This document shows positions 7,458 through 64,000 of a stretch of 64,000 nucleotides of DNA, in pieces. The first letter of the stretch is position 1. Each line of letters begins with the position of its first letter. The stretch comes from an uncultured Solirubrobacterales bacterium. Lineage in GTDB: Bacteria > Actinomycetota > Thermoleophilia > Solirubrobacterales > JBBDJG01. A program made the position numbers and the translations under genes. The stretch covers positions 528,608 through 592,607 of the forward strand of contig CAVZDP010000005.1 in NCBI GenBank assembly GCA_963774075.1, written 5' to 3'. Under the pieces are notes generated by a model that saw only the letters and a list, made by a program, of their open reading frames with translations, did not search any database and had not been told where the DNA came from.

Positions 7458-8956
7458 GCAACGGACGATCGACGTCGACGTCTCAGACCTCGACACCCGC
7501 GGGCGCACGCTGCACGGTTACGCGAGCGTGTACGGCGTCGAGAGCTTAGACCTAGGAGGGTTCCGGGAGCGGATCGCGCCCGGTGCCTTCGCCGACGTGC
7601 TCGACGCGGACGTTCGCTGCCTTCTGAATCACGATCCCTCGCAGGTGCTCGGGCGCACGCGCTCGGGCACGCTGCGCCTCCACGACGAGGAGCGCGGGCT
7701 TCGCTTCGAGTGCGATCTCCCAAGCTCGCCGCTCGGAGAGAACGTGCGCGAGGCAGTCAAGCGCGGCGATGTGGACGGCGCGAGCTTCCGCTTCGTCGTC
7801 TCCGACGAGGACTGGAGTGAGGATGGCGAGCTGCGCACCGTTCGCTTGGTGCGCGAGCTGCAAGACGTAACCGTCGCAACCTACGGCGCGTATCCGGCCG
7901 CCAGCGTCGAACTTCGGACGCGACCCGACAACCCGCAAGAGGAGGAAGAAGACGTGAAGCCAGAAGACCGCGAGAGCGGCGGCCTCGCGGTCGAAGACAG
8001 GACCGCGACGGACGCCCAACCGACCGTCGAGGAGCGAGTGATCGATGCGCTGCGGAGCGTCCGCAAGGGCGAGTCGCGCGCGCTCGCCGGCAGCGCCGCG
8101 GACGCGATCACGCCGCCCGAGCTGTCGACACTGCTATTCGAGAAGCTGCGCGCGGCGAGCGTGATGTTGCAATCGGGCATCCGCGTGATCCCGACCGATC
8201 GCGACTCGATCGAATGGCCGAAGCTCTCGGCCGACGTGAGCCCGGCTTGGTACGCGGAAATGGACCCGATCACACCCGGCGACCCATCGTTCGTCACCCT
8301 CACCGCCACGCCGCGCAAGCTCGCCCACTTGGTGCAGGTGTCAAACGAGGTCGTAGACGACTCGGCGCCATCCGTCGTGGACGTGCTCAACACGCACCTG
8401 GCCACGATGCTCGGGCTGCGGCTCGACTTCTTCCTCCTGGAGGGCAACGGAACCGCGCCTCAGATCCGTGGGCTTAAGAACGTCGCCTCGATCCAGACCG
8501 TGAGCATGGGCGCCAACGGCGCGCAGCTCACGAACCTCGACCCGATCGCCGACGCGGTCGGGCTCCTGGAGGCGGCGAACGCGCCCGGGCCCTACGCGAT
8601 CGTGATGCCCCCCGCGCAACTGGTCAACGGTGCGCAAGTTCAAGGACACGACGACCGCGCCGCTCCTGACCGCTACGCCGAGCACGGACGCGCCGCGAAC
8701 GGTGTTCGGCAACCGCGTCTACGTGTCCGCTCAGCTCACGCTCACCGAGACGCAGGGCACGAGCACGGACTGCAACTCGATCTACGTCTACAGCGCGAGC
8801 GAAGTCGTGCTCGTGCGCCGGCAGGACGCACAGATCGAGCTCGATCGCTCGCGCCTGTTCAATCAGGACGCGAGCGAGCTGCGCGGCAAGCTGCGCGCCG
8901 ATCTCGTCGTGCCAAACCCGCAGGCGGTCGTGCGGATCGTGGGGGTGAGGCCCTGA
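7444..8956 (+). pseudogene. fused HK97 prohead protease and major capsid protein, interrupted by a 1-nt frameshift
   Basis: The N-terminal ~160 aa form a prohead protease (GYASVYGVESLDLGGFRERIAPGAF, LLNHD). The capsid domain follows (TPRKLAHLVQVSNEVVDDS, PYAIVMPP). The capsid C-terminus (RNWSTVRKFKDTTTAPLL...VVRIVGV) continues in the next frame after a C6 run at 8608-8613. Confidence 0.75.
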
Positions 8957-9111
8957 TGGAGCGCACTCGCGAAAAGACCCTCACCGTGACGGTAAAGGAG
9001 GGCTGTGTCGTCTACCACGACGGCACCGGCTACGGGCCCGGTCAGACGTTCGAGCTCCCGGCCGCGGAGGCGCGCGCGCTGCTCGAGCAAGGGGTCGTGG
9101 AGAAAACCTGA
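8956..9111 (+). CDS. small hypothetical protein (head module)
   Basis: MERTREKTLTVTVKEGCVVYHDGTGYGPGQTFELPAAEARALLEQGVVEKT. The ATG overlaps the capsid stop (ATGA). It lies in the frame of the over-extended 7444-9111 track ORF. Confidence 0.35.
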   Translation: MERTREKTLTVTVKEGCVVYHDGTGYGPGQTFELPAAEARALLEQGVVEKT

Positions 9112-10056: not shown

Positions 10057-10061
10057 TGAAG

Positions 10062-10135
<74 letters not shown>

Positions 10136-12976: not shown

Positions 12977-15900
12977 TCAGCGGCCACGCCGGCCGAAGCT
13001 GTGGGGAACCGGCAGCACGGCGCGTAGATCCCCGCCGGCCGCGGCCGCGAGCTGTTCCTCCCCGCCGGTGCCCGCGGTCTCCTCGATCGCCTCCCGGCCC
13101 GTCTCCCGGCCGACCGGCGGCTCGATGTGCTTGACCTCGGCGCGCGGCAGGTCCAGGCGTTCCAGCGGCCGAAGCGACTGCACGACGACGTTGATCACTC
13201 CAGCGCGCTTCTCGAGCCGGCCTTCGACGATCACGAACGGCTCCGCTCGCACAGTGAGGCGATGGCGCTCGTAGACCTGCGGCATGACGACCAGGTTGAT
13301 CGTGCCGAGCTCGTCCTCGAGCAGCATGAACGTGATCCCGTTCGCCGTGGCAGGGCGCTGGCGCGCGACGACGAGGCCGGCGATGGTGATGCTCTGCCCA
13401 TCCGGCAGGCGCTCGAGGTCCTCGCTCGTGACCGCTCGCTCCGGGAGGTCGGGGCGCAGGAGCTCCAGCGGGTGCTGATCGATGCTGATCCGAAACGAGC
13501 CGTAGTCGGCCACGAGCCGCTCCCACGGCGTTTGCTCGCGCAACGCCGGCGGCTCCGGCGCCTCGAGCGGCAGCGAGAGCTGAACGCCGCCGGGGACCGC
13601 CCGCCCCGGCGTGACGACCCCGAGCTGCCACAGCACCTCACGCCGCGGCAACCCCTCACAAGCCCCCGACCAAGCAAGCCGCTCGAGCGTGTCACGCCCA
13701 ACCCCCGACCGCGCAGCCAAATCCCCCGCATCGAAATAACCCCCACCCCTCTCCCTTTCCTCGACGAGCCACCGGACCTCCTCCTCCCGAACGCCGAGGA
13801 CGTACCCGAGCCCGACCCGAACCGCAAGAGAAGTGGAATCGTCATCAGCAACGCGTCTGGCACGGGTGGCGCGCAGGGTGGCTTTTCGGCGAGGGCCCGC
13901 AGCCGAAAGGTCACTCAAGCCGACAGGACCCGTGCCGCTGGCGTTCCCATCCTGAGGCCGTTCAACCCGACACTCAACAAAGCTCCGGTTCACGTCGGGC
14001 GCCAGGACAGTCATCCCGCGAAGCTGCGCCTCGTGCACGAGCGAGTCCGGTGGATAGAACCCCATCGGCTGCTCGTTCAACAACGCACACAGAAACTCCG
14101 GCCCGTAGTGAACTCGCAGCCACGTCGACTGGTACGCGAGCAAACCGAACGCGGCGGCATGCGCCTTCGGAAAGCCGAAGCCCGAGAAGCCGCGCACCTG
14201 CTCGAAGACGCTCTCGGCCACGGCGTGGTCGACCCCACGCTCGACGGCGCCTTCGACGAAGCGCTGCTGGTAGACGGCCATCGCCGCGTCCGAGCGCTTG
14301 CGGCTCATCGCGCGGCGAAGTCCCTCCGCCTCGCCGGCGCCGAAGCCGGCGAGCGCCATCGCCACCTCCAGCACCTGGTCCTGGAACACGATCACGCCTA
14401 GCGTCTCTTCCAGGACGGGCTCGAGCGAGGGATGCGCGTAGGGAACCTTGAAGCTCGGGTCCACTCTGCGCTTCTCGCGCCTGTCTATATAAGGATGGAC
14501 GGCGCCGCCCTGGATCGGTCCCGGGCGAACGAGCGCGACCTGCACCGTGAGATCGTCGAGGCTCGCGGGCTTGGTGCGGCGGATGCTCTGCATCTGCGCG
14601 CGGCTCTCGATCTGGAACACGCCCGTCGTCTCGGCGCGCTGGATCACGCGATACACCTCCGCGTCGTCGTACGGGACGCGCGAGAGATCGATCCGCTCGC
14701 CGCGCACGCGCGCCACCTCGTCGATGCAGCGCTCGACCGCGGAGAGCATCCCGAGCCCCAGCAGGTCGATCTTCAAAAAGCCGGCGTCCGCGCAGGAGTC
14801 CTTGTCCCACTGCACGAGGTTGCGGCCCTCCATCGCCGAGGGTTGCACGGGGCAAAGGTCGATCAAGGGCTCGGTTGCGATCACCATCCCGCCCGGGTGC
14901 TGGGAGACGTGGCGCGGCAATCCGTACGCCTCGGGAGCGAGCTCGATCAACGCCCGCCAGCGCGGCGAGCGAGCGCGCCGCGAGCCGATCACCTCCTCCA
15001 CCCCGCGCGCGAACCCGTCGGCGTCGCCGTACACGTCCGTGGCCCGCGCAAGCCGCTCGATCTCGCCCGCCGGCAGCCCGAGCGCCTTGCCGAGGTCGCG
15101 CACCGCGCCCTTCCAGCGATAGGTCGCGAACGCGCCGACGAGCGCCGCGCGCTCGGCCCCATAGCGCTCGTGCACGCGCGGGATCAGCTTCTCGCGAATG
15201 TCGCGCGGGAAGTCGAGGTCGATGTCGGGCAGCGCGCTGATCTCCTCGTTCAGGAACCGGCCGAGAAAGAGGCGGTTGCGGATCGGGTCGATGTGCGAGA
15301 GCCCGGTCAGATAACAGACGATCGAGCTGACGCTCGAGCCGCGCCCGCGCCCAGGCGGGAGCAGCGTGCGCGCGGAGTCGCGCCCGCGCACCTCGGCTGC
15401 AACCTCACGCGCAAGCTCCAGCATGTCGTGGTGAAGGAGGAAGAAGCCCGAGAGCCCGAGCGTGCGGATCACGCGCAGCTCCTCGTCCAGGCGCGCGCCT
15501 GCCTCGGCGCGCTCGGCGGCCCGGTAGCGCCCGTCCAGGCGCCCACGGCAGAGCTTCGCCAGCTTCTCGTCGGCCAGCGGGTCCTCGGAGCCGGGATAGC
15601 GGTAGCCGAGGTCGCGGGTGAGGTCGAACTCGATTCGCTCGGCGAGCCGGGCAGTCTCCGCCACTGCGTCGGGGCGGTCGTGAAAGCGCTCGGCCATCTC
15701 GGCCGGCGCCGCCATCACCGAGCTGCGGTTGCCGCGCCGCTCAGGCTCGGTCTGATCGAGCGTCAAGAGCAGGCGAGCGGCGACGAACGCGTCCTGCAGG
15801 CGGGCGCGGTCGGGGTGGTGGGAGTGGACGTTGCCAGTCGCCACGCACGCAACGCCGACCTGCTCGGCTAGCGAGCAGAGCGCGCGGTTTCGCGCCCGGT

Positions 15901-16444
15901 CGCGCCTCCAGCAGGGGCGCTGGAGCTCGACGCGGAAGCGGTCGCGGCCGAAAGCGGCGAGCAGGCGGCGGGCGATCCGCTCGGCCTCGCGCGCCTTTCC
16001 CCTCTCCACCGCTCCTGCGACCGCGCCGTCGCGCGCGCACCCGGACAGGCAGAGGAGGCCTTCGGCGTGGCGCTCGAGCTGGTCGATCGTCGTGCGCGGC
16101 GGCCGCCGCGCGGTGGCGCCGCTTCGCGAATAGTCGCGGGTGCCCTCGTGCGCGAGCGTGAGTAGGCGGCAGAGGTTCCTGTAGCCGTGGCGATCTTGAA
16201 CGAGCAGGGTGAGGTGAGCGGGCTCCGTCCTTTCCACGACCGTCAACTCGGCGCCCGTGATTGCCTTCACGCCGAGCCCCTTGCAGGCGTGCGCGAACTC
16301 CATCGCGCCCCAGATCCCGTCGTGGTCGGTGAGCGCGATCGCCTCGTAGCCGTGCACGGCCGCCGCTGCAGCCATCTCCTGCGGAGTGGAGGCGCCGTCC
16401 AGGAACGAGTAGGCCGAGTGGGCGTGCAGCTCGACGTACGCCAT
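12977..16444 (-). CDS. dnaE2: error-prone DNA polymerase III alpha subunit (DnaE2/ImuC)
   Basis: PHP-domain start MAYVELHAHSAYSFLDGAS and a Pol III alpha core (GRGSSVSSIVCYLTGLS, PDIDLDF, HPGGMVI, GLLKIDLLGLGMLS). It lies downstream of imuB. The track ORF begins 39 codons earlier, but the ATG at 16442-16444 couples to the upstream stop. Confidence 0.9.
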   Translation of the reverse strand: MAYVELHAHSAYSFLDGASTPQEMAAAAAVHGYEAIALTDHDGIWGAMEFAHACKGLGVKAITGAELTVVERTEPAHLTLLVQDRHGYRNLCRLLTLAHEGTRDYSRSGATARRPPRTTIDQLERHAEGLLCLSGCARDGAVAGAVERGKAREAERIARRLLAAFGRDRFRVELQRPCWRRDRARNRALCSLAEQVGVACVATGNVHSHHPDRARLQDAFVAARLLLTLDQTEPERRGNRSSVMAAPAEMAERFHDRPDAVAETARLAERIEFDLTRDLGYRYPGSEDPLADEKLAKLCRGRLDGRYRAAERAEAGARLDEELRVIRTLGLSGFFLLHHDMLELAREVAAEVRGRDSARTLLPPGRGRGSSVSSIVCYLTGLSHIDPIRNRLFLGRFLNEEISALPDIDLDFPRDIREKLIPRVHERYGAERAALVGAFATYRWKGAVRDLGKALGLPAGEIERLARATDVYGDADGFARGVEEVIGSRRARSPRWRALIELAPEAYGLPRHVSQHPGGMVIATEPLIDLCPVQPSAMEGRNLVQWDKDSCADAGFLKIDLLGLGMLSAVERCIDEVARVRGERIDLSRVPYDDAEVYRVIQRAETTGVFQIESRAQMQSIRRTKPASLDDLTVQVALVRPGPIQGGAVHPYIDRREKRRVDPSFKVPYAHPSLEPVLEETLGVIVFQDQVLEVAMALAGFGAGEAEGLRRAMSRKRSDAAMAVYQQRFVEGAVERGVDHAVAESVFEQVRGFSGFGFPKAHAAAFGLLAYQSTWLRVHYGPEFLCALLNEQPMGFYPPDSLVHEAQLRGMTVLAPDVNRSFVECRVERPQDGNASGTGPVGLSDLSAAGPRRKATLRATRARRVADDDSTSLAVRVGLGYVLGVREEEVRWLVEERERGGGYFDAGDLAARSGVGRDTLERLAWSGACEGLPRREVLWQLGVVTPGRAVPGGVQLSLPLEAPEPPALREQTPWERLVADYGSFRISIDQHPLELLRPDLPERAVTSEDLERLPDGQSITIAGLVVARQRPATANGITFMLLEDELGTINLVVMPQVYERHRLTVRAEPFVIVEGRLEKRAGVINVVVQSLRPLERLDLPRAEVKHIEPPVGRETGREAIEETAGTGGEEQLAAAAGGDLRAVLPVPHSFGRRGR

Positions 16445-16686
16445 CACGCACCCCGCTGCAAGAACCAGCGGCCGCTTGCGAGGTCGCGAAAGACGACGAC
16501 GCTCGCGCCGTCGTCGGTGACGATCTCCATGTAGCGGCGCCGTAGCGGGCGCTCTGTCCACCAGCGGTCCTCGACGAGCCAGTCCTCCCGCACAGCTTCC
16601 ACGCGCTTGTGCGCAACACGGATGGGAGTGTCTTCGCGATCGACCTCGACGGTCGCGGGACGAGGCCGATAGAGAACGCGGCTCAA
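16444..16686 (-). CDS. small conserved-looking protein between imuB and dnaE2
   Basis: 80-aa ORF (VEDRWWTERPLRRRYMEIVTDDGASVVVFRDLASGRWFLQ). Its stop overlaps the dnaE2 ATG (ATGA) and it starts 8 nt after the imuB stop. Confidence 0.55.
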   Translation of the reverse strand: MSRVLYRPRPATVEVDREDTPIRVAHKRVEAVREDWLVEDRWWTERPLRRRYMEIVTDDGASVVVFRDLASGRWFLQRGA

Positions 16687-50801: not shown

Positions 50802-52805
50802 GTGGGGCCGTCCCGGCGCGATCTAGCCATCGGCGCCGGGTACATATCAGCGTTTGCCTCGCATGGCGGCGCGTCGACACAAGGGGGTCCCGTGGGGAGG
50901 GAGTCGTCACCTAGAGGTTTTGCCACCGTCGCTCGCCGACTTGGCGCAGTTCTCGTCGTCTTGGCGTTCACCGCCATCGCGGCCGCACCGGCCGCGGCCG
51001 CGCCGACGCACTATGTCGAGATGTCCGACGGCGCGAGCATCGCCATCAACGTGAAGGTGCCCGACCACTGCAACGCCGGAAATCCGTGTCCGACGTTCTA
51101 CGAGATGTCAGGATACGAGAGCGGCTCGGACGAGGGGCAGACTCCGGCGGGCCATCTCGCGGACGCGACAGGCATCCCGTTTCCGCTCCAGACGGGCACG
51201 CGCGCGGCGCACGCCGCTCGCGTCGACGACCGCTACGTGACCGTACTCGCGAGCGTCCGCGGGACGGGCTGCTCGTCGGGCGAGTTCGATGTCTTCAGCT
51301 GGCGCTCTGCGCTCGACGGCAAGGAGGTCATCGATAAGTGGATAGCCAAGCAGCCGTGGTCGAACGGCGACGTCGTGATCTTCGGCCACTCGTACAGCGG
51401 CTTGACCGGGATGTTGATCGCTTCGACGCGACCCGCACACCTGCGCGCCGTCACAGCGTCCGGCCTCTTCGGCGACGTCTACCGTGACATCGTCTATCCC
51501 GGAGGAGTCGCGAATTATGGCTTCCCACTCCTGTGGACGGGCGCCATACGTCCCGTCTACGACTTGGGCGGAGGGACCGCAGGCGGGGTCTATCCCGTCG
51601 AGGAGACGAGCGCACAGTGTGCAGCGAACCAGGCCGAGCGCTCGCGCACCGTCCTTGACGACCCGCTCATACACGGGCTCGACAACACCGACAACGAGTG
51701 GTACCGCTCGCGCTCGTCCGTCAACCACATAGGCAACATCACCGTGCCCGTCCACGTGACCGGCGCCTACCAGGACGAGCAGACCGGCGGCCGCGGCCCG
51801 ACGCACGTGTTCGACCGCCTGCCCACCACGGTCTCCAGACGCATAGTGCTGGTCAACGGCGAGCACGGCACGCAGACCGAGGACCACGTCTGGAAGGACC
51901 GCATCGCGTGGATGGACTACTGGATGCTCCGCAAGCAGACCGCCGACCTGGGCATCAAGACCGGTGTGGCCAACCTTGCGAGCACGTTCGGTCCCCGGGA
52001 GCGCGTAACGAGGACGTCACGGGTGATCCTGGGCTACCAGGGCGGCGGCAAAGCCGTCGGCGAGATCCGCTCCGACGGGTACCCGCTCGGCCAGACGCGC
52101 TTCACCGACGCCTACGTGACCGGAGCCGGGAAGCTGGCGTTCCAGCCCCCGCTTGCCAGCGGCTCGTCGACATGGGTGAACGGCTCCAGGCGCCAGTCGT
52201 ACGCGTACCAGACCGGCGTCAACACGGGCGGCGAGGTCTCGAGCCCGACCGGGCCGGACGAGGTCGAGCTGTCGATGAAGTTCAATCAGGCGACCGCGAT
52301 GGCGGGACCCATCACGGCGTCGCTGTTCGTCTCCACGACCGGGATCGACACCGAGCTGTTCGTGCAGCTCCTCGACCGCTCCCCGGACGGGACTCTGCTG
52401 TACCTCAACCGAGGAATGCTGCGCGCGAGCCACCGAGCGGTCGACCCGGCTGAGTCGCAGAAGACGGCGGACGGCCGCATCTACAGGCCGTGGCGCCCGC
52501 ACGAGGGGCGCGAGGTCATCGTCCCCGGCGCAGTGAACGAGTACCTGATCGACATCTTCCCGTTCGGGCACGTGTTCCTGCCCGGGCACGAGCTGGTCGT
52601 GAAGGTGCACGCCCCGCCGGCGGAGGACAACGACTACGCCTACGTTCAGGAGACGCCGCCAGGAGTGAACACGCTCCACTTCGGCCCAGTGACCCGGTCG
52701 CGGTTCACGCTGCCGACCGTTCCAATGAGCGAGGTGGTCGGGTTCGAGGCTCCGACGGGCCAGTGCCCGTACGCGTCCATGCGCTGCCTATCGGGCGGAG
52801 GCTAG
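50802..52805 (+). CDS. secreted CocE/NonD-family (S15 X-Pro dipeptidyl-peptidase-like) hydrolase
   Basis: Signal-like RRLGAVLVVLAFTAIAAAPAAAA, nucleophile elbow FGHSYSG and a C-terminal beta-sandwich region. The true start is probably the GTG at 50892, after AAGGGGG. Confidence 0.75.
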   Translation: MGPSRRDLAIGAGYISAFASHGGASTQGGPVGRESSPRGFATVARRLGAVLVVLAFTAIAAAPAAAAPTHYVEMSDGASIAINVKVPDHCNAGNPCPTFYEMSGYESGSDEGQTPAGHLADATGIPFPLQTGTRAAHAARVDDRYVTVLASVRGTGCSSGEFDVFSWRSALDGKEVIDKWIAKQPWSNGDVVIFGHSYSGLTGMLIASTRPAHLRAVTASGLFGDVYRDIVYPGGVANYGFPLLWTGAIRPVYDLGGGTAGGVYPVEETSAQCAANQAERSRTVLDDPLIHGLDNTDNEWYRSRSSVNHIGNITVPVHVTGAYQDEQTGGRGPTHVFDRLPTTVSRRIVLVNGEHGTQTEDHVWKDRIAWMDYWMLRKQTADLGIKTGVANLASTFGPRERVTRTSRVILGYQGGGKAVGEIRSDGYPLGQTRFTDAYVTGAGKLAFQPPLASGSSTWVNGSRRQSYAYQTGVNTGGEVSSPTGPDEVELSMKFNQATAMAGPITASLFVSTTGIDTELFVQLLDRSPDGTLLYLNRGMLRASHRAVDPAESQKTADGRIYRPWRPHEGREVIVPGAVNEYLIDIFPFGHVFLPGHELVVKVHAPPAEDNDYAYVQETPPGVNTLHFGPVTRSRFTLPTVPMSEVVGFEAPTGQCPYASMRCLSGGG

Positions 52806-55128: not shown

Positions 55129-55908
55129 TCAGCGCAGGATCCGTGCCGCGATGCCCTCGATCGTCTCCTCGCCGTAGGCCATTGAGGGACTGTCCCGTGT
55201 GAGGACAGCCAGCGCGATCCGTTTGCCGCCGCGTTTGGGCTCAAGGAGGGCGACCTGGTGGGTGATGCCCGGGACCCAGCCGCCCTTGAAGAAGGCTTTC
55301 AGGTTCTTGCGGCGCGCAACCGGCGCGATGCCCCAGCGTTGCCCCTTTGTGATCGAGGACAGCAGCTTGCGCGCGTAGCTCCTGTGAGCGCGAGGCACAA
55401 GCTTGTCGATGCGCAGGAAGAAGCGGGCTTGGTCGGCGGCGGTGATCTGCGACACCCCCCAGGGGCTGGCGGGCGTGAACTTCCTCATTCCCGCCGCGCG
55501 CGCGACCCTACGCAGGCCGTGGGCGCCGATCTGCGCATAGATCGTGCTCGCCGCTGCATTGTCGGACGTGGTGATCATCGGCCGCAGGCGCTGTCGCTCC
55601 GTTTCGCTCAGGTGTCGTTTCCCGGCGCGGCGCAGGACTGACACGAGCATCATTGCTTTCACGACGCTTGCCGAGCGAAAGCGCGTCGTACGTCGCAGCC
55701 CGCGCACGCGTTTTCCGTGCTCGTCGAGGACGGCGAATGCGACCGCTCCTTCCCGCGAGCGGGCAAAGCGCTGGGCAGCCTTGATTCCTATGGCGGTCGC
55801 CAGCGGCTTCCCCTCGCGAGCATCGACCGCTCGGGCCAGGACGCCGACGGGAACGATCGCCCCGAGCAGCAGCACGATGACGGCGATCCTCGACATGCCG
55901 CATCCCAT
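55129..55908 (-). CDS. class A beta-lactamase-like serine hydrolase
   Basis: Signal-like N-terminus, then SVVK (S-x-x-K), SDN and a KGG triad-like motif in class A order. Confidence 0.65.
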   Translation of the reverse strand: MGCGMSRIAVIVLLLGAIVPVGVLARAVDAREGKPLATAIGIKAAQRFARSREGAVAFAVLDEHGKRVRGLRRTTRFRSASVVKAMMLVSVLRRAGKRHLSETERQRLRPMITTSDNAAASTIYAQIGAHGLRRVARAAGMRKFTPASPWGVSQITAADQARFFLRIDKLVPRAHRSYARKLLSSITKGQRWGIAPVARRKNLKAFFKGGWVPGITHQVALLEPKRGGKRIALAVLTRDSPSMAYGEETIEGIAARILR

Positions 55909-55988: not shown

Positions 55989-56387
55989 ATGAGCAATGTC
56001 GAAAGCATTCAAGCGTTGTACGAGGCCTTCGGGCGCGGCGACGTACCCGCCATTCTCGACCCGCTCGCCGACGATGTTCAGTGGGACCAGGACGCGCCTG
56101 GATACGGGATACCGATTTACGAACCGGGTACGGGCAAGGACCACGCGCAGCGCTTCTTCGAAAACGTTCAGAGGGATCTCGAGTTCCTGCGATTCGAGCC
56201 GAGGAACTTCCTCAGCGGAGGAAACCAGGTCGCCGTGCCGATCGACATCGAGGTCAAGGTGAAGCCGACCGGCAAAGTCGTTGAAGCGCTCGAGGTCCAC
56301 TTGTGGACGTTCGGCGACGACGGCAAGGTGAGCCGCTTCTTCCACTGCATCGATCGCCACGCCTTCGTCTTGGCCTACGGCCTTTGA
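55989..56387 (+). CDS. SnoaL/NTF2-like protein
   Basis: SIQALYEAFGRGDVPAILDPLADDVQW and the late VHLWTFGDDGKVSRF. Confidence 0.65.
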   Translation: MSNVESIQALYEAFGRGDVPAILDPLADDVQWDQDAPGYGIPIYEPGTGKDHAQRFFENVQRDLEFLRFEPRNFLSGGNQVAVPIDIEVKVKPTGKVVEALEVHLWTFGDDGKVSRFFHCIDRHAFVLAYGL

Positions 56388-58582
56388 GTTGAACCGGTGA
56401 GCGGGGCCCTCGGGTGCTCGCCGGTCTCCTCGTGCAGCGCGCCGCCGCCCGCGGCGGTCGACGGCCACCAGATCTTGTCCCCGATCAGCTCCACCGCGGC
56501 CGGGACCATGATCGTGCGCACGATGAAGGTGTCGAGCAGGATCCCGAGCGCGACCATGAAGCCGAGATCGAAGGTGTAGGTGACAGGGAGAGTCATCAGC
56601 ACCGAGAAGGTGCCGGCGAGGATGATCCCGGCGCTGGTGATCACAGGGCCCGTGGCGGAGAGCGCGCGCAGCATGCCCTCGCGGGTGCCGTGGCGCCGTG
56701 CCTCCTCGCGCACGCGCGCCATCAGGAAGATCGTGTAGTCGATCCCGAGCGCGACAAGGAAGATGAAGGCAAAGGTTGGGATCGAGGCGTCGAAGCCAGC
56801 GTCGCCGACGACGAACCGTATGAACAGGACAGAGAGCCCGAGGGTGCAGAGGAAGGAAAGCAGCACGCTGGCGATCAGCACCAGCGGGGCGACCAGCGCC
56901 CGCAGCAGGATCGCGAGGATGATCGCGATCACCAGCAGCGCAATCGGCGCGATCAGGCGCAGATCGGATTCGACCGCCTGGTCGAAGTCATATTGGATTG
57001 CGGTGCCGCCCCCCACCAGGGCGGTCACGCCCGGGCCCAGGTCATCGACGCTGTCGCGGATGTCGGGCACGACGTTGAGCGCCGGCTTGGTATAGGGGTC
57101 GTTTTCGAGCACGACGTCGATCGTGGCCATGCTGCCGTCCTTGGAGGTCCTGCCGGTAGGCGTTGCCGACGCCACGCCCGGTACACGCTCCAACGCTCGT
57201 TCAGCGGCCGCGATGTCCTCAGGCCTGACCTTGCCGTCCTCGCGCTCGACGAGAACGGTGGTCGGGGCGAGCAGGCCCGCGGGGAACGACTTCTCGAGCA
57301 ACTCGAACGCCTCGACGCTTTCCACCGACTTCTTGAAGAAGGTCGTCGTCGAGTAGTCGACCTTGTAGGCGAGCAACCCGAGCGAGCCGGCGACGAAGGC
57401 GATCACGGTCACGGCCAGGGCGAGCGCGGGCCGGGCGAGGACGCGATCGCCGATCCGCCTCCACACACCCTGGCGAACCTCCAAGGCATGCTCGGGGTCG
57501 AACTCCACCGTGGAGCGCCGCGGCCAGAAACCGGTGCGTCCGAAGATCGTCAGCAGCGCCGGCAACAGGGTGAGCCCGGCCACCATCCCGCAGGCGACGC
57601 CGATCGCCGCCACCGGCCCAAGCGTGGAGGTGAGGCGGGCATCGGCGAGCGCCAGCGTGAGCATCGCGAGCGTGACGGTGAGACCGCTGGCGAGGATCGT
57701 CGGGCCGGTGCGCGCGAGCGCGCGCGCCATCGCGTCGTGCTTGTCCTCGAGCCGGCGCAGCTCCTCGCGATAGCGGGACACGAGCAGCAGGCAATAGTCA
57801 GTCCCCACGCCGAACATGAGGACGACGAGGATCGTCGTCCCATTGGAGGAGACCGTCGCGCCCGATTCTGCGTACAGGTAGACGAATGCCGTTGCCACCG
57901 TGTACGCAAAGAAGACGACGAGCAGCGGCGTCAGCGCGACCAGGACGGCCCGGTAGATCGCGCCCAGCAGCACCAGCACCAGGAGCACCGTGGCCAGGAG
58001 CAGCTTCGTGTCTAGCTCGCCGAAGACCTCCTCCGCGTCGGCGCTGAAGCCAAGGTCGCCCGTGAGGAGGATTCGCATCCCGTCGCTCTCGTCCCCGGTG
58101 ACCTCGCGCACCTTCTTGCCCCAGTCCGCCGCCTTGTCGAAGTCGGTGGGGACGATCAGAACCGTGTAGGCGACGTCTCCCTCGGGGGAGACGAGCGTCT
58201 TCGGAGCTCCGCGCGCGAACGGAACGGTGGGCGGCTGGGCGAGGGGAAGATCCTCGCCGGGCAGGGCATCGAGCGTCTGAGCGTGCTGGGCGATCGTGCG
58301 CTTGTCGGCCTGGGTCAGGCCCCCCTCGCGCTGGTAGACGATCAGCCCCTGTGTGGTCTCGCCCGCGTCGAACTGCTCGTCGAGCAGCTTGACCACGTCC
58401 GTCGACTCGGCGCTCTCGGGTAGGAAGGAGGTGGTGTCGTCCTCGGTCTTGTCGGAGAGCTTCGAGCCGAGCGGCATCAGCGCGGCGAAGGCGACGATCC
58501 ATATAGCGAGCACCACCCACTTGGTGCGGCGGCCGGCGATGAAGGATGCGAGAGGGCTCATGCGGCGAACACCGTGCGACAA
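56375..58582 (-). CDS. MMPL-family (RND superfamily) membrane transporter
   Basis: 735 aa with two six-helix hydrophobic blocks and MMPL-typical FGVGTDYCLLLVSRYREE and ALGIDYTIFLMARVREE segments. Confidence 0.9.
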   Translation of the reverse strand: MSHGVRRMSPLASFIAGRRTKWVVLAIWIVAFAALMPLGSKLSDKTEDDTTSFLPESAESTDVVKLLDEQFDAGETTQGLIVYQREGGLTQADKRTIAQHAQTLDALPGEDLPLAQPPTVPFARGAPKTLVSPEGDVAYTVLIVPTDFDKAADWGKKVREVTGDESDGMRILLTGDLGFSADAEEVFGELDTKLLLATVLLVLVLLGAIYRAVLVALTPLLVVFFAYTVATAFVYLYAESGATVSSNGTTILVVLMFGVGTDYCLLLVSRYREELRRLEDKHDAMARALARTGPTILASGLTVTLAMLTLALADARLTSTLGPVAAIGVACGMVAGLTLLPALLTIFGRTGFWPRRSTVEFDPEHALEVRQGVWRRIGDRVLARPALALAVTVIAFVAGSLGLLAYKVDYSTTTFFKKSVESVEAFELLEKSFPAGLLAPTTVLVEREDGKVRPEDIAAAERALERVPGVASATPTGRTSKDGSMATIDVVLENDPYTKPALNVVPDIRDSVDDLGPGVTALVGGGTAIQYDFDQAVESDLRLIAPIALLVIAIILAILLRALVAPLVLIASVLLSFLCTLGLSVLFIRFVVGDAGFDASIPTFAFIFLVALGIDYTIFLMARVREEARRHGTREGMLRALSATGPVITSAGIILAGTFSVLMTLPVTYTFDLGFMVALGILLDTFIVRTIMVPAAVELIGDKIWWPSTAAGGGALHEETGEHPRAPLTGSTQRP

Positions 58583-58676: not shown

Positions 58677-59084
58677 TCAGTCGGGTAGCTGTTCCGACAG
58701 GCCCACGGCTTCGAGGGCCTCCACTCGATCCCAGAAGAACTCCAGGTAGAAGATCCTTCCCTTGCGCACCGTGTGGATCGTCGTCAAGTCCATGTTCGCT
58801 TCAGGACCACGGCCTGCGCCACGCCAGATGAATCTCACGACAACGTGGTCGGCGGCGTCGATGAAATCGCTAATCGGTTCCAGCGCGTCGGCGTCGAAGG
58901 TCTCGCGCTGTTGCTCCCACTGACGCAGGACGGCCTCGCGACCCACGATGGGCCCCGGCTCCGGCCAACCCTCGGGCATCCGGAGGATGACGTCGGGGTC
59001 GTACACCTCACGAAGCGCATTCATGTCCCCCGCGTTCCATGCCGCGAACGCGGCCTTCACAATCTCCACGTTCTCCTGCGACAT
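58677..59084 (-). CDS. SnoaL/NTF2-like protein
   Basis: NVEIVKAAFAAWNAGDMNALREVYDPDV and VVVRFIWRGAGRG...VRKGRIFYLEFF. Confidence 0.65.
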   Translation of the reverse strand: MSQENVEIVKAAFAAWNAGDMNALREVYDPDVILRMPEGWPEPGPIVGREAVLRQWEQQRETFDADALEPISDFIDAADHVVVRFIWRGAGRGPEANMDLTTIHTVRKGRIFYLEFFWDRVEALEAVGLSEQLPD

Positions 59085-59142: not shown

Positions 59143-59214
59143 TGGGCGCGGCGGGTTTCGAACCTGCGACCTCTCGCGTGTGAAGCGAGCGCTCTCCCAC
59201 TGAGCTACGCGCCC
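59143..59214 (-). tRNA. tRNA-Val (anticodon CAC)
   Basis: Reverse complement GGGCGCGTAGCTCAGTGGGAGAGCGCTCGCTTCACACGCGAGAGGTCGCAGGTTCGAAACCCGCCGCGCCCA. The anticodon loop is TTCACAC. There is one mismatch in the T stem. Confidence 0.85.
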
Positions 59215-59349: not shown

Positions 59350-60156
59350 CTAACGGTCGCGAACCGTCTCTGTCGGCTCCGCGCGGTGAACTTCGCGACT
59401 CGCCTTCGGCGCTCCGCAGCAGATCATGTAGAGCGCTGTCTCGTCCGGCTCGAGGCCGAGCAGGCCGTTCAGCTCGTGGTCGTAGAAGCCGCCGATCGGA
59501 ACCACTCCGAGGCCAAGCGCAGCAGCGCAGAGGCAGAAGTTCTGCCCGAGGTGGCCCGCCTCGAGCAAGATGTGCCGGTAGCCGCGCTGCTCGTATCTCC
59601 ACATCGTCCGATCGAAGACGGCGGTGATGATGACGACGATGTTTGCGGCCTCTACCGTTTCTCGGTGGATCGCTACGTCGGCGAGCTGTGAATGCGTGAG
59701 ATCCCGATGCAATGCCACCAGCTCGTGCTCCCGAACCGAATAGTGATAGAGACCGTCGGGAATATCGGTAACCGAGCGGGTCGCTACGTAGACCTCGAGC
59801 GGATACTGCCCACCCGCTGAGGGAAAGGGCCTCTCCGCAACCGCCTCGCCTCCAGTCTCGTGATACGCGCGAACGCCAAAGCTTGCGTGAAGGAGGCGTC
59901 CCGCTACTTGGCTCTCAATCGCCGTCGGCTCGAAGAGGCGGGTTGACTTCCTATCCCGAAGCAGTTGTCCGAGCGAAGCGTCCAGCTCGAAATCTCGCCC
60001 AGGTAGCGCGTAGCGCTCATCACCCGGATGGATACGAAACGGCGGCGGGGCGTCGGCCAGGTCGGGGTCGTCGTGTCTGCGTCCGGAGCTGCCTCGCACT
60101 AACTTGGAGTGTTCGTGATAGACGCGTGCGATGTCGGGGTCGACGTACCTAGTCAT
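59350..60156 (-). CDS. SagB-type FMN-dependent dehydrogenase (azoline oxidase type)
   Basis: RDRKSTRLF, PFPSAGGQYPLEVYV and the nitroreductase-fold C-terminus RHILLEAGHLGQN...VPIGGFYD. Starts 21 nt after the cyclodehydratase stop. Confidence 0.8.
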   Translation of the reverse strand: MTRYVDPDIARVYHEHSKLVRGSSGRRHDDPDLADAPPPFRIHPGDERYALPGRDFELDASLGQLLRDRKSTRLFEPTAIESQVAGRLLHASFGVRAYHETGGEAVAERPFPSAGGQYPLEVYVATRSVTDIPDGLYHYSVREHELVALHRDLTHSQLADVAIHRETVEAANIVVIITAVFDRTMWRYEQRGYRHILLEAGHLGQNFCLCAAALGLGVVPIGGFYDHELNGLLGLEPDETALYMICCGAPKASREVHRAEPTETVRDR

Positions 60157-60177: not shown

Positions 60178-62535
60178 TCACCCAACAGGGTGTGGATCGG
60201 GATTGAGCTGCCCAGCCGCCAGGGCCTGCAGTCGTCGGTTGCCGAGTGGCTCCTGGCGAAAGCCGAAAGAGATTTGCTGGATACCCGCGCCGACCGCGCG
60301 CGCGACCCGGAAGGGACTCTCGGCTACGTCGGGGGCGGTTACATCGACGACGGCGAGCCGGAGCTCGGATCGCTCCGAAAGCGCGTTCAGACCAGACAGC
60401 GAGGCTATCGGTGGCTCTGGCAGCGAGCAAAGTTCGACCGGTTGTCTCGCGGTCTTCCTCCAGAAGTCGAGCGATTCAGCTCGTTCGGAGGGGACGTAGT
60501 AGGTCATGTGGTCGATCTCGCTGCGAACCTCCTCCGGGCTTCCGGGGATCTCCACGTTGCCTGCTCGCATGGCACGGCGCAGGCTGAGACCTGCCTGTGC
60601 CTGCTCCAGCATCGCCTTTCTCACCGCCGCTACCGGACTTAGGTGTGAGCCCATGCCAACGACTACTCCTGGCCAATGCTCGCCGTCCCCGGAAGAAACG
60701 CAGGCCACAACCGAGATAGGGGCCGCGACATCTAGGAGATAGAACTCTAGGGGGCCCGCATGGCGTTCGAGCTGACGGAGAGCCTCGGCAGCGACGCCTT
60801 CCAGGCTCTCCCGGACTGCCAGAGGCCGTGGTGGAGACATCGAGAGCCACGTCAGCGTAAAGCTGTCGCGCTCGAGCAGCTCAAGCGCAGCTCGCGAAGC
60901 CGCATCGTCGATGCTCGCTCCCGCGGCAAGACCACTCGTCGTGACGGCGCAGAAGGTTTCGGCGGCCGGTGCAGGGTAGTGCAGGTACGCCACGAGGGCA
61001 GGCACCCAAACCGGCGCGCCGTCGTCGAGCCACCGGCCCCGAACCCAGTCGATCGGTCGACCAGGATCGAAACGGGCGTACGGGAAGTCGGGGTCGGCGT
61101 ACTGCTCATCCGAATACAGGGTTAGGTCGCGCGGGTCGAGCACATCGCCGTCGAGCTCATCAAGCGCGGCTCTACACACCGTTTCCGGCCATTGACAGGC
61201 CGAGTAGCGCTCGATTGCCTCTCCGACGGCGGAGAGCGCCGCATCAACCCTCGTGAGGCCTTTGCCGAATCCGAGCTCCGGTTGCCATTCACGGTGTCGA
61301 GTCTGACTGTAAGTGGACAAGATCGCGTAAGAGAAGAACGGAAGCTGCGGCTCGTTGACCTTCGGCCTGGGGACAGCCAGCCTGTTCACGATGCCGACAC
61401 GCGAGTCGACACATCCGTGCAGGAGATCGCGAAGCTCCCCGGGTTCTGTGACCCTGTCGAGATTCGGGGCCTTCCTTTCTTGTCGCGTCTCGACGGGCCT
61501 CTGGGCCCCCGTTATGGACGGATCGCCCGCAGGCGGCGCTGACGGCGAGCCTGCTCGGGACCAGACCTGCGCTTGCCCGCAGATCTCGCACCACGGAACC
61601 CGCACGACTGTGTGGAGTGCAGATTCAGGGTCAATCAGGTCGTGGATAAGTACGCGACCGACGAGCGGCGATGCGCCGGCGACGAGAAACTTCACTGCTT
61701 CGAGGGCAACGAGCTGCCCCACCAGTGGGGGCATCGACGCCAGGTACGCGCGCGGGCGTAACGGCGCAGGATTCTGAAGCACAGCCTCTTGGAAGTTGCG
61801 TTCATCCTCCGGCTGAGAGACGTTCGCCGCCTGCCGCAGCCGGAAGCAGTTCCAGCAGGCGGTCTGCCCTGGGATCACGAGCGGCCCGACGATCGCCTCC
61901 CTTCCCTGCAGGTAGCCGGACAGGGAGCGGGCTCCAGCCTCATGGCAGATCCGAGCAAGAGTAAGCCAGGCCTTGAGCTCATCTGGCGCGAGCGCTCCGA
62001 TCACGAGACTGCACTCATCTCCGGGCAGATTCAGCTCCTCAAATGGCCCCGTCACTAGCTCAGTCGAAGCTGCTCTGTGGCTGAGGACGTCGGCCAGCGC
62101 CTCGACCCGTGGCCTACCGCAATCGCCCGACGAAAAGACGCGGCTCCCGAGCAGATCGTCCTCGCCTACGAGACCGTCGTCGAAAAGGTGGAGGTGGCCG
62201 ACCGCGGAGGCTGCAAGCTCAGAGGCGAGGACAACGCCCCACGGCTCCAAGCCAACAACCACGACGCGCGCCCGCCGCAGCACTTCCATTTGGTCGTTGC
62301 CTTGACCACTCCAGGCCGCGAGGAACCGCTCTTGCGCGCGCCAAAGCGAGTCCCCCTCGCCTACCCGCTCCACGAAGCCCTGTTGCTCGAGGTTCGCAAG
62401 GAGCTCGATTACGGAATCTGCGTCGTACTCCGGCAGGTGCGTCGCGATCTCCTCGGCACCAAGGCTGCCGTCGAGCAATGGGAGGAGCGACTTGGCAGCA
62501 TCGACGTCTTCGCCCTCGAGGCGAAGCATCGCCAA
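60178..62535 (-). CDS. fused RiPP cyclodehydratase: N-terminal wHTH-like segment, E1/ThiF-like domain and YcaO domain
   Basis: E1-like part ARVVVVGLEPWGVVLASELAASAVGHLHLFDDG with QTACWNCF. YcaO part GFGKGLTRVDAALSAVGEAIERYSA, CAVTTSGLAAGAS and AALELLERDSFTLTW. The start is TTG at 62535 or ATG at 62529. Confidence 0.8.
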   Translation of the reverse strand: MAMLRLEGEDVDAAKSLLPLLDGSLGAEEIATHLPEYDADSVIELLANLEQQGFVERVGEGDSLWRAQERFLAAWSGQGNDQMEVLRRARVVVVGLEPWGVVLASELAASAVGHLHLFDDGLVGEDDLLGSRVFSSGDCGRPRVEALADVLSHRAASTELVTGPFEELNLPGDECSLVIGALAPDELKAWLTLARICHEAGARSLSGYLQGREAIVGPLVIPGQTACWNCFRLRQAANVSQPEDERNFQEAVLQNPAPLRPRAYLASMPPLVGQLVALEAVKFLVAGASPLVGRVLIHDLIDPESALHTVVRVPWCEICGQAQVWSRAGSPSAPPAGDPSITGAQRPVETRQERKAPNLDRVTEPGELRDLLHGCVDSRVGIVNRLAVPRPKVNEPQLPFFSYAILSTYSQTRHREWQPELGFGKGLTRVDAALSAVGEAIERYSACQWPETVCRAALDELDGDVLDPRDLTLYSDEQYADPDFPYARFDPGRPIDWVRGRWLDDGAPVWVPALVAYLHYPAPAAETFCAVTTSGLAAGASIDDAASRAALELLERDSFTLTWLSMSPPRPLAVRESLEGVAAEALRQLERHAGPLEFYLLDVAAPISVVACVSSGDGEHWPGVVVGMGSHLSPVAAVRKAMLEQAQAGLSLRRAMRAGNVEIPGSPEEVRSEIDHMTYYVPSERAESLDFWRKTARQPVELCSLPEPPIASLSGLNALSERSELRLAVVDVTAPDVAESPFRVARAVGAGIQQISFGFRQEPLGNRRLQALAAGQLNPDPHPVG

Positions 62536-62610
62536 GTCTGAACGCAGAAGGATGCCCTCGCTAGTGGGGACGACGATCGCGGCGAGCTTCAGGCGAGAGG
62601 CGGGCGTAGA

Positions 62611-62721
62611 TCATCCTCCCGACGAAAACGAAAGGCTCAAAACCGATCTCGACGGCGACACCAGCGTCACGGGGTGAGCGTGACCGACAACCGCCGCCGC
62701 GACGGTGCGCGTGCTGGACAT
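62611..62721 (-). CDS. speculative 36-aa Ser-rich ORF just upstream of the cyclodehydratase
   Basis: MSSTRTVAAAVVGHAHPVTLVSPSRSVLSLSFSSGG. Its TGA is in frame with the downstream cyclodehydratase ORF. No SD. Confidence 0.15.
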   Translation of the reverse strand: MSSTRTVAAAVVGHAHPVTLVSPSRSVLSLSFSSGG

Positions 62722-62823
62722 CGCGGCCAAGTGTAAGTGCGCGCCCGCCCCGCGCGCTGCCCGCGCTAATTCGCAGGACCAGCGCTGGCTAGTAGCGGTG
62801 GAGAGCCAGGCGGCTAAAGCGAG

Positions 62824-63120
62824 TTAGCCCGGCGTGATACCTGGGGGCGGCTTAAAGCAAGACGGCTCTGGACTCCCGAGGCAGCCTGGCGCTGGCAGCC
62901 CCGGCCAACGCCCCGCGAAAAACTTCGAATCCGAGAACGGAGGCACGTCCAGGTGCCCGATTGGGTGTGGTCCGAAAGTCGGATCGTTGAATGGCGGGGG
63001 TTTGGCGCACTCGGTCGGCGTAACACCGCCCTGAGCGGCGGGCGCCGCTGCCATCCCCAACGCCGCGCTTACCACGGTCGCAGAGATCATGAGTCGCTTC
63101 TTGGAGTTCTTGGGCGGCAC
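62824..63120 (-). CDS. RiPP precursor-like small secreted Pro-rich protein, paralog 3
   Basis: GTG start 6 nt after AGGAGG. MPPKNSKKRLMISATVVSAALGMAAAPAAQG, then ...KPPPFNDPTF...VPPFSDSKFF...PEPSCFKPPPGITPG. Confidence 0.7.
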   Translation of the reverse strand: MPPKNSKKRLMISATVVSAALGMAAAPAAQGGVTPTECAKPPPFNDPTFGPHPIGHLDVPPFSDSKFFAGRWPGLPAPGCLGSPEPSCFKPPPGITPG

Positions 63121-63144
63121 AGCTCACCTCCTGTGAATTGGCAG

Positions 63145-63417
63145 CTAGACGGGCTCGATACCGGGCGGTGGCTTTGCGCAGCTCGGTTCGGGATGCGCGG
63201 GCGCCTTCGGGAAAAACTTCGGATCCGAGAACGGAGGCACGTTTAGATGCCCGACTGGCGTTGGCTGGAAGCTCGGATCTTGGAATGGCGGCGGTTTGAT
63301 GTGCCCGACCGGCACGATGATGGCCTCGGCTGCCGGCGCCGCCGCTGCCATCCCCAAAGCCGCGCTCACCACGGTCGCGGAGATCATGAGTCGCTTCTTG
63401 GAGTTCTTGGGTGGCAT
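63145..63417 (-). CDS. RiPP precursor-like small secreted Pro-rich protein, paralog 2
   Basis: ATG after ACGAGG. The first 26 aa are identical to the other two, and the body ends in HPEPSCAKPPPGIEPV. Confidence 0.7.
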   Translation of the reverse strand: MPPKNSKKRLMISATVVSAALGMAAAAPAAEAIIVPVGHIKPPPFQDPSFQPTPVGHLNVPPFSDPKFFPKAPAHPEPSCAKPPPGIEPV

Positions 63418-63447
63418 GCTTACCTCGTGTGAAGAGCTAGTTAAGGG

Positions 63448-63735
63448 TTAGACGGGCTCGATACCGGGCGGCGGCTTCAAGCAGCTCGGGGCCGGATGCG
63501 CGCAGCTCGTCGGGTGTGGCCAGCGCCCTTCGAAGAACTTCGGATCCGAGAACGGAGGCACGTTCAGATGCCCGACTGGCTCTGGTTGGAAGCTCGGATC
63601 ATTGAACGGCGGCGGTTTGGCGTGCCCGATCGGCGTGACCTGAGCATCGACTGCCGGCGCCGCTGCCATTCCCAACGCCGCGCTCACCACGGTCGCGGAG
63701 ATCATGAGTCGCTTCTTGGAGTTCTTGGGTGGCAC
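63448..63735 (-). CDS. RiPP precursor-like small secreted Pro-rich protein, paralog 1
   Basis: GTG start 6 nt after AGGAGG. The first 26 aa are identical to the other two, and the body ends in PTSCAHPAPSCLKPPPGIEPV. Confidence 0.7.
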   Translation of the reverse strand: MPPKNSKKRLMISATVVSAALGMAAAPAVDAQVTPIGHAKPPPFNDPSFQPEPVGHLNVPPFSDPKFFEGRWPHPTSCAHPAPSCLKPPPGIEPV

Positions 63736-63817
63736 AGCTCACCTCCTGTGAGCACGCTGACCTCACCGGTTCTGCAAACGCGAGTAGATCAGCGGTCGAA
63801 AATCAAGTCAAGTACGG

Positions 63818-63847
63818 TGTCATCCGATCGGATGACAGCCGATCGGC
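63818..63847. promoter_or_regulatory. 20-bp perfect palindrome TGTCATCCGATCGGATGACA plus adjacent GCCGATCGGC, candidate operator
   Basis: Lies 83-112 nt upstream of the first precursor-like gene and next to a TTGACT (minus strand, 63806-63811). Both palindromes share a CCGATCGG core. Confidence 0.4.
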
Positions 63848-63947
63848 TACTTAAAGCATCAGCGATTGGGCAGCAGCAGCGTTCTGGTGCCCAAATCGAG
63901 CCGAAATCACCCCAATCCGGCCCTATTCGCGGGAGCGCCAAACAGCC

Positions 63948-63984: not shown

Positions 63985-64000
63985 GCCAACACTCAGACTC

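Follow-up and report, generated by a model that had tools for sequence, protein, structure and literature searches.

Pathways for peptides that are ribosomally synthesized and then modified post-translationally (RiPPs) normally depend on a leader, on a protease that removes it and on an exporter. Bufferins and oxazolins are rare RiPPs with Sec signal peptides; their heterocycles are formed in the cytoplasm, and the export by Sec that follows was shown experimentally (PMC11626156, PMC12452194). In the bufferins, the general Sec machinery replaces both protease and exporter for peptides modified by an iron enzyme. For cinnamycin, a Sec-type site had been suggested earlier, according to the reference list of one of these sources (PMC12452194), and a report from 2026 described a cluster-encoded SipW-like signal peptidase that acts in dependence on a RiPP recognition element (RRE) (PMC13381572). 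In the literature searched, the coverage of which was incomplete, no YcaO or azole pathway was found whose precursor bears a Sec signal, which is an absence of evidence. Here, three paralogous genes (W1, W2 and W3) encoding small proteins of 90–98 aa are described, which lie upstream of the genes for a fused heterocyclase and a SagB-type dehydrogenase in a 64,000-nt stretch of DNA from an uncultured Solirubrobacterales bacterium, a soil actinobacterium (contig CAVZDP010000005.1; hereafter, the window). All coordinates are positions in this window unless a related locus is named, and the module of precursors and enzymes is on the minus strand. Judged by gene content and conservation, it is somewhat more probable than the opposite that this is a minimal module making Sec-exported, thiazole-bearing proline-rich peptides. 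Given that reading, it is plausible, at roughly even chances, that the signal segment doubles as the recognition leader.

Results

Signal-like N-termini of the small proteins

W1 (63448–63735; 95 aa, GTG start), W2 (63145–63417; 90 aa, ATG start) and W3 (62824–63120; 98 aa, GTG start) begin with signal-like segments that comprise residues 1–31 (63643–63735), 1–32 (63322–63417) and 1–31 (63028–63120), respectively. Signal peptides were assigned to W1–W3 and to five relatives by rules for the n-, h- and c-regions. In W1–W3, the n-region MPPKNSKKR (net charge +4) is followed by an uncharged run of 20–21 residues (LMISATVVSAALGMAAA(A)PA.) and then by small residues at positions −3 and −1. Cleavage was predicted at ...AAAPAVDA↓QV in W1, ...APAAEA↓II in W2 and ...APAAQG↓GV in W3. 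Throughout the eight-member family, the charge of the n-region is kept at +3 to +5 while its sequence varies (MPPKNSKKR, MASKKR, MASKKAKKR, MTPKVTKKR and MTPKKMKKR), the uncharged run spans 19–21 residues, and a V/A/S-x-A/G site is present with a Pro 4–6 residues before it. The residues at −3 and −1 are always small and the residue at −2 is variable (D, E or Q), which is the pattern expected under selection by signal peptidase I. Thus, every feature of a type I signal peptide covered by the rules was found in all eight members, in agreement with an earlier note on this DNA, which had described the leaders as Sec-like. The sequence strings quoted in that note were all recovered from the minus strand where it had placed them.

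A similar c-region occurs in another secreted protein encoded in the window (...ARAVDA↓R; 55129–55908). The h-region is only moderately hydrophobic, with a KD15 of 1.92 as compared to 2.6–3.0 in two further signal peptides encoded in the window. Moderate hydrophobicity of the h-region fits post-translational targeting rather than targeting coupled to the signal recognition particle.

Two other signal classes were rejected. For a lipoprotein signal, the lipobox L-[AS]-[GA]-C was absent from the small proteins, which have no Cys inside or right after the h-region. For a signal peptide of the twin-arginine translocation (Tat) pathway, the motif S/T-R-R-x-F-L-K was absent, with KKRLMIS in its place and RR in none of the members, and the Tat-signal models yielded no match at E ≤ 0.01.

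Mature parts of the small proteins

The mature parts contain about 30% Pro. They share the repeat unit C/H-x-x-P-P-P-F-x-D-P-x-F-F and the ending P-x-P-(S/T/N)-C-x-KPPPGIEPV. The Cys of P-x-P-(S/T/N)-C is present in all eight members and is the sole invariant Cys. The terminal KPPPGIEPV is invariant in seven of the eight and missing in the member from the related locus L003, the leader of which is kept. The Pro-rich mature part of W1 holds two Cys and four His, that of W2 a single Cys, located in PEPSCAKPPPGIEPV, and that of W3 three Cys. One position of the C/H-x-x-P-P-P-F repeat swaps between Cys and His, a change that takes two base changes; it is mostly His in W1–W3 and mostly Cys in the relatives (P0005, P0006, P0127 and L003:431–706). 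This interchange hints at metal ligation or at an equivalence of thiazole and imidazole. Prediction of the precursor alone with AlphaFold2 (AF2) gave a pLDDT of 58 without secondary structure, which only suggests that it is disordered. W1–W3 had no match in Pfam or NCBIfam.

Conserved linkage of the small proteins with the heterocyclase

The small-protein family is rare, with about eight members in the 5.8 × 10⁹ and 1.84 × 10⁹ proteins searched. Three members from outside the window were found by a word-indexed search of the former, and one more by an exhaustive profile search of the latter set of representatives. An exact look-up of W1 yielded no record. Scans with the precursor alignment yielded no match in GTDB species genomes and none in JGI metagenome contigs, and the clade of the window enzyme was absent from 185,579 species genomes.

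DNA was available for five loci, namely the window, L001, L002, L003/L004 and L008. A family member lies directly upstream of an orthologous enzyme in all five. L001 comprises a precursor, the enzyme and the start of SagB; L002 a precursor followed by an enzyme beginning MPPSRLKL...; L003/L004 a precursor, the enzyme and SagB; and L008 a precursor's tail, another precursor and the enzyme. The tail in L008 (L008:1-52) is the 3' end of an extra precursor copy (...PPPGIEPV-stop) located before P0127. Thus, tandem precursor genes are not unique to the window, in which tblastn revealed no copy beyond W1–W3. The flanks of the loci are unlike each other: L001 has a transposase, L003 a sigma factor, a MarR-like gene and a recombinase, and the window tRNA-Val, SnoaL and MMPL genes. 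Since the shared neighbours are set amid unrelated flanks, the conserved unit consists of the precursor(s), the heterocyclase and the dehydrogenase, and nothing else. No protease or exporter is conserved among the five loci.

Selection on the signal-like segment

The KKRLMISATVVSAALG-AAAP segment is nearly invariant in the family. Residues K7–P27 are invariant in a six-protein alignment (A1), and a few substitutions within them occur in the L003 member and in P0127. Selection was estimated for six genes by Nei–Gojobori counts of the proportions of nonsynonymous (pN) and synonymous (pS) differences. For K7–P27, five genes showed a pN of 0–0.02 at a pS of 0.12–0.36 (dN/dS ≤ 0.08), and dN/dS was ≤ 0.11 in all pairs when the L003 gene was added. 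In comparison, the mature part showed a dN/dS of 0.17–0.80 at a similar pS. These values mean that the identity of K7–P27 is kept by selection at the protein level and not by recent gene conversion.

In secreted proteins, the signal peptide ordinarily changes faster than the cargo; in RiPPs, the leader is the conserved part. The conserved signal-like segment and the faster-evolving mature part seen here reverse the former pattern and are typical of the latter. The signal-like segment is also the sole sequence N-terminal to the first modifiable Cys and to the first Cys/His position of the repeats. Since nothing else precedes that repeat position, an N-terminal leader, if bound by the RRE, must overlap the signal.

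The heterocyclase and SagB

The heterocyclase gene (60178–62607, minus strand) would encode 809 aa from an ACG codon at 62607–62605 to the C-terminus ...NPDPHPVG. It comprises a predicted winged-helix RRE (~62362–62607), an E1-like/ThiF domain with a CxxC...CxxC site (~61627–62313) and a YcaO domain (~60292–61266). The protein matched TIGR03604 (SagD-type) with 231.6 bits (cutoff 219.25) and TIGR03882 (leader peptide-binding protein) with 66.9 bits (cutoff 36.9); in Pfam, it matched YcaO (4.2e-59) and ThiF (2e-19). The gene for the SagB-type flavin mononucleotide (FMN) dehydrogenase, which would oxidize azolines to azoles, begins 21 nt past the heterocyclase stop (59350–60156, minus strand; 268 aa), and its product matched TIGR03605 with 152.8 bits (cutoff 78.4). 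Going by these model matches, the two enzymes are a bona fide azole-forming pair.

The earlier note had given the enzyme as 785 aa, which corresponds to the first canonical start codon, TTG 62535, and cuts off the N-terminus. The in-frame stretch STPASRLKLAAIVVPTSEGILLRSDLA upstream of this TTG is conserved in L001, L003 and L008 and fits the N-terminal consensus of the family. The arrangement GGAGG–7 nt–ACG is common to the window (62605–62619, minus strand), L003 (~950–962) and L008 (~590–604). In L002 (~904), an ATG stands at the codon aligned with the ACG, and L001 has TTC there, without an obvious start. On account of the conserved N-terminal extension and the aligned ATG, the start was placed at ACG 62607–62605. 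Only with this start is the RRE domain complete. Combined with the strong ribosome-binding sites of the precursor genes, the ACG start suggests that translation of the enzyme is deliberately low.

The AF2 model of the 809-aa heterocyclase reached a pLDDT of 86.9 and a pTM of 0.84. In this model, residues 1–83 fold into a beta-sheet and three helices, i.e., a winged-helix RRE (pLDDT of 78–90). The top Foldseek matches, which extend along the whole chain, were LynD, TruD and MusD (E of 1e-38 to 1e-30; TM of 0.6–0.7). Across 49 homologues, the cysteines of the Zn site, the catalytic residues of YcaO and the Pro-rich motif at the C-terminus (H807/P808) are invariant. Within the window clade, the RRE is conserved at 63–69% and the catalytic domains at 62–71%. 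From these invariant residues and the conserved RRE, the enzyme looks active and still leader-dependent.

Sister clusters with acidic leaders

Enzymes 31–46% identical to the window enzyme (most full-length ones 40–46%) are encoded at 80 loci in GTDB species genomes. An obvious precursor lies upstream in about 36 of these, and also in L005–L007. In all these sister precursors, the leader is acidic and helical (PKDL[DN][IV]x[ILV]TELxxA[IV]xxL) and the core contains 20–49% Cys; a signal-like N-terminus occurs in none. The window clade has thus exchanged the type of leader as well as the type of core. The earlier note had called a leader that also serves as export signal unusual for an azole RiPP, which is borne out by the acidic, non-secretory sister leaders and by the literature searched, where Sec-signal RiPP precursors are named only for the MNIO/bufferin type (PMC11626156, PMC12452194). 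An apparent likeness between the window leader (KKRLMISATVV) and a sister leader (PKDLNISLTEL) was rejected as chance.

The precursors of L005–L007 carry tandem CGMP(P)CR(S)EG repeats. Right after SagB, the same loci encode a large cyclase/AAA/TPR regulator of the STAND type (L005:11217-13838, L006:9175-11796 and L007:9332-12772).

Layout of the module and other features of the window

An AGGAGG-type ribosome-binding site (CACAGGAGGTGAGCT-type) lies 7–8 nt before the GTG or ATG of each of W1–W3. The region upstream of W1 (63736–63860, minus strand) holds a promoter-like pair, TTGACT...TCTACT, similar to the pairs located 5' of the precursor genes at L001, L002 and L008. Directly before the −35-like hexamer TTGACT lies a perfect palindrome of 20 bp, TGTCATCCGATCGGATGACA (63818–63837), a possible operator that was not recovered 5' of the precursors in L001, L002, L003 and L008. 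A scan for promoters and terminators revealed nothing inside the module exceeding the shuffled expectation.

The genes of W3 and the enzyme are separated by 216 nt. The spacer (62611–62823, minus strand) carries the GGAGG at 62619–62615, 7 nt before the ACG of the enzyme, and its DNA is partly shared with L003 707–957 (TTAGCGCGGGC...TTACACTT...). In both the window and L003, it reads as an in-frame open reading frame (ORF) ending ...VVGH..VT....S.GG-TGA right before the enzyme start. A hidden precursor in the spacer (39-aa in-frame ORF, 62611–62730) was rejected as a conserved gene, as it is partly similar in L003 and absent from L001, L002 and L008.

Downstream, the module is bounded by tRNA-Val(CAC) (59143–59214, minus strand), 135 nt past the SagB stop; the enzyme genes do run into this tRNA gene, as the earlier note had stated. 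Just past it, on the same strand, lies a gene for a SnoaL-like protein (58677–59084), followed by one for an MMPL (RND-type) transporter (56375–58582, minus strand; 2e-123). Neither is found in the related loci. An S15-family X-Pro dipeptidyl peptidase with a signal peptide of its own is encoded at 50802–52805 (plus strand; Peptidase_S15 1.5e-32, PepX_C 2e-20). A link between this peptidase, which lies 6.5 kb from the module and is not conserved in the related loci, and the very Pro-rich precursors is unproven. The earlier statement that the cluster has no protease or exporter thus stands for what is conserved across the five loci, but needs qualifying for the window, given the MMPL transporter and the secreted S15 peptidase.

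Elsewhere in the window, the error-prone DNA polymerase DnaE2 is encoded at 12977–16561 (minus strand; 975 bits). In a fragment search, it was 65–73% identical to proteins from metagenome-assembled genomes of Thermoleophilaceae and Solirubrobacterales, and these closest relatives place the window in the Thermoleophilia. Near tRNA-Met (10061–10135), a single 555-aa ORF (7444–9111, plus strand) had matches to two HK97 proteins, the prohead protease (1e-31) and the major capsid protein (1e-22), and may represent the remnant of a prophage or a fusion of the encapsulin-like kind.

Discussion

Proposed mechanism

The locus would represent a RiPP module with three functions in a Thermoleophilia-type actinobacterium: three precursors, a fused RRE-E1-YcaO heterocyclase and SagB. 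The precursors would be made in excess, given their strong ribosome-binding sites as compared to the ACG start of the enzyme. Thiazolines would be formed in the cytoplasm by the heterocyclase, from the invariant Cys of P-x-P-(S/T/N)-C and from the other 0–3 Cys, those of the C-x-x-P-P-P-F repeats, and SagB would then oxidize the thiazolines to thiazoles. The modified, unstructured proline-rich peptide of about 60 aa would be exported by the general Sec pathway by means of its own N-terminal signal peptide, and signal peptidase I would free it at the A-x-A site. The use of general Sec and signal peptidase I would account for a module without a dedicated protease or transporter. The near-invariant h-region (KKRLMISATVVSAALG) would also be the strand bound by the RRE of the enzyme, and enzyme binding and export would compete for this one segment. 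Such a dual role is indirectly supported, since purifying selection acts far more strongly on the signal-like segment than on the mature part and this segment is the sole sequence before the first modifiable Cys. Of this scheme, gene content, domain identity, synteny and the pattern of conservation are observed, whereas the small proteins' role as substrates, azole formation, export by Sec with cleavage, and binding of the signal segment by the RRE are inferred.

Alternative explanations

Several points weigh against this reading. The signal peptide of bufferins is dispensable for modification (PMC11626156), so that a dual role cannot be assumed for the window proteins. A profile of 27 sister leaders misses the window leader, with 759 of 2000 shuffles scoring as high, and the best ungapped BLOSUM score of the window leader versus a sister leader was equalled by 48 of 300 shuffles. 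A charge shift of the RRE that would match the basic leader was inconsistent (net −10, −2 and −6 in the clade as compared to −3.4 ± 2.3 in the outgroup). Recognition might instead rest on the C-terminal C-x-KPPPGIEPV or on the repeats. With 1–4 Cys per mature part of about 60–75 residues, as compared to 20–49% Cys in the C-terminal half of the sister precursors, proteins of the W1–W3 type would be atypical substrates. A non-Sec role is likewise consistent with the low hydrophobicity of the h-region and with the invariant KKR, and a protease or exporter could be encoded beyond position 64000 in the source genome.

Some of these points bear on whether the signal serves for export only. The small proteins would then be heterocyclase substrates exported by Sec, and the enzyme would read the mature part, e.g., the C-x-KPPPGIEPV follower or the C-x-x-PPPF repeats, as in bufferins. 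The dispensable bufferin signal peptide, the invariance of KPPPGIEPV in all members but one and the lack of detectable similarity between the window leader and the RRE-binding sister leader would suit this explanation. It is nevertheless fairly unlikely: conservation of the h-region (dN/dS ≤ 0.11) far exceeds the needs of export, the L003 member lacks KPPPGIEPV and keeps the leader, and the RRE is retained and conserved like the catalytic domains. Conversely, the N-terminus may act as a cytoplasmic RiPP leader that resembles a signal peptide, the product staying inside or leaving by way of an unlinked protease and transporter. The h-region is weakly hydrophobic, rich in Ser and Thr and invariant in sequence as leaders are. 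What makes this explanation quite improbable are features of all members that SecA and signal peptidase, and not an RRE, would select: the n-region is kept in charge but not in sequence, −3 and −1 are small, −2 is variable and Pro stands at −4 to −6. Moreover, the compared loci hold no alternative conserved protease or exporter.

Very little weight is given to the explanation that the small proteins are proline-rich secreted proteins of an ordinary kind and that the enzyme pair acts on another substrate. Few Cys, Ser and Thr, an unusually great length for the core of a linear azole-containing peptide and the 216 nt that separate W3 from the enzyme gene would be in line with it. However, the family was found only beside this enzyme clade, in five of five loci with differing flanks, the spacers hold no other conserved candidate precursor, and the precursors of the sister clusters occupy the same position. 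The least probable of the explanations considered is export by Tat or another post-translational route, with the invariant KKR and LMI standing in for a twin-arginine motif in degenerate form; such a route would suit a cargo matured in the cytoplasm. KKR-L-M-I is invariant, unlike the remainder of the n-region, the h-region is low in hydrophobicity and rich in Ala, Ser, Thr and Gly, and Tat chaperones that bind the signal until maturation provide a known logic. RR is found in no member, however, Tat-signal models gave no match below the threshold, and a peptide predicted to be unstructured does not need Tat.

Implications of a proposed Sec-exporting azole module

If the preferred reading of a minimal module for Sec-exported azole peptides is extended to its widest form, the locus would stand for a new RiPP class. 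A single 20-residue segment would be both export signal and RRE leader, and the heterocyclase would gate entry into Sec until the thiazoles are complete. The secreted C/H-x-x-P-P-P-F array, with Cys present as thiazole and interchanging with His, would bind metal outside the cytoplasm, as a YcaO counterpart of the MNIO bufferins. This wider proposal is tentative and, taken as a whole, rather unlikely.

The locus suggests that YcaO/azole pathways reached a bufferin-like Sec solution independently. Going beyond bufferins, the conservation pattern suggests that the enzyme itself reads the signal peptide. If true, precursor, heterocyclase and dehydrogenase would provide a compact, portable three-gene design for the secretion of azole-modified peptides. 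It would also be a natural case of a cytoplasmic modifying enzyme and SecA sharing one targeting segment. Genome mining tools that drop ORFs with signal peptides as precursor candidates would miss such families.

Comparison with known systems

The cyanobactin heterocyclases PatD, TruD and LynD as well as MusD share the fused RRE-E1-YcaO architecture and the fold with the window enzyme (E of 2e-26 to 3e-19 by sequence). In these enzymes, the N-terminal RRE binds a strand of the leader; the RRE of the window enzyme is predicted. Identity is only about 17–20%, and the precursors are unrelated. The PatA/PatG proteases and the macrocyclization of cyanobactins are not present in the window module; no protease gene of any kind lies in the module, and none is conserved in the five loci.

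The clusters for linear polyphosphorylated peptides (PMC13381572) resemble the proposal made here in that an enzyme of the signal peptidase type takes off a RiPP leader. They have a dedicated, RRE-guided peptidase, whereas the window module is without a peptidase gene and a housekeeping enzyme is presumed to act. A similar logic to that proposed for the RRE applies to the maturation of Tat redox enzymes, where cytoplasmic chaperones of the TorD/DmsD type hold the export signal until the cargo has matured. Pathway, proteins and cargo differ, and no homology is implied.

The sister clusters, i.e., thiazole/oxazole-modified microcin (TOMM) clusters from Thermoanaerobaculia, Chloroflexota, Gemmatimonadota and Sorangium, have the gene order of the window (precursor, fused heterocyclase, SagB) and likewise lack an adjacent protease or exporter. 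Thus, such an absence alone is not distinctive, but the signal peptide is. Unlike the window, these clusters have Cys-rich precursors with acidic leaders devoid of signal features, and the STAND/TPR cyclase-type regulator located downstream in them is absent from the window clade.

Bufferins and oxazolins share with the window long precursors (~60 aa), an N-terminal Sec-type signal that replaces the classical leader, the lack of a dedicated protease or exporter in the cluster and the possible presence of several precursor copies. Their Cys-derived heterocycles are made before export, and the counterpart of this step in the window is predicted. The features defining the bufferin/oxazolin family (MNIO/DUF692 with DUF2063 and a DUF2282-type precursor) do not apply to the window cluster. 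Bufferins are modified by an iron enzyme, DUF692/MNIO, together with its partner DUF2063, whereas the window uses an ATP-dependent YcaO heterocyclase with SagB. Bufferins are small folded proteins, whereas the window peptides are Pro-rich and predicted to be unstructured. Metal binding in the window family is a guess, and the signal segment of this family, unlike that of bufferins, is invariant in sequence.

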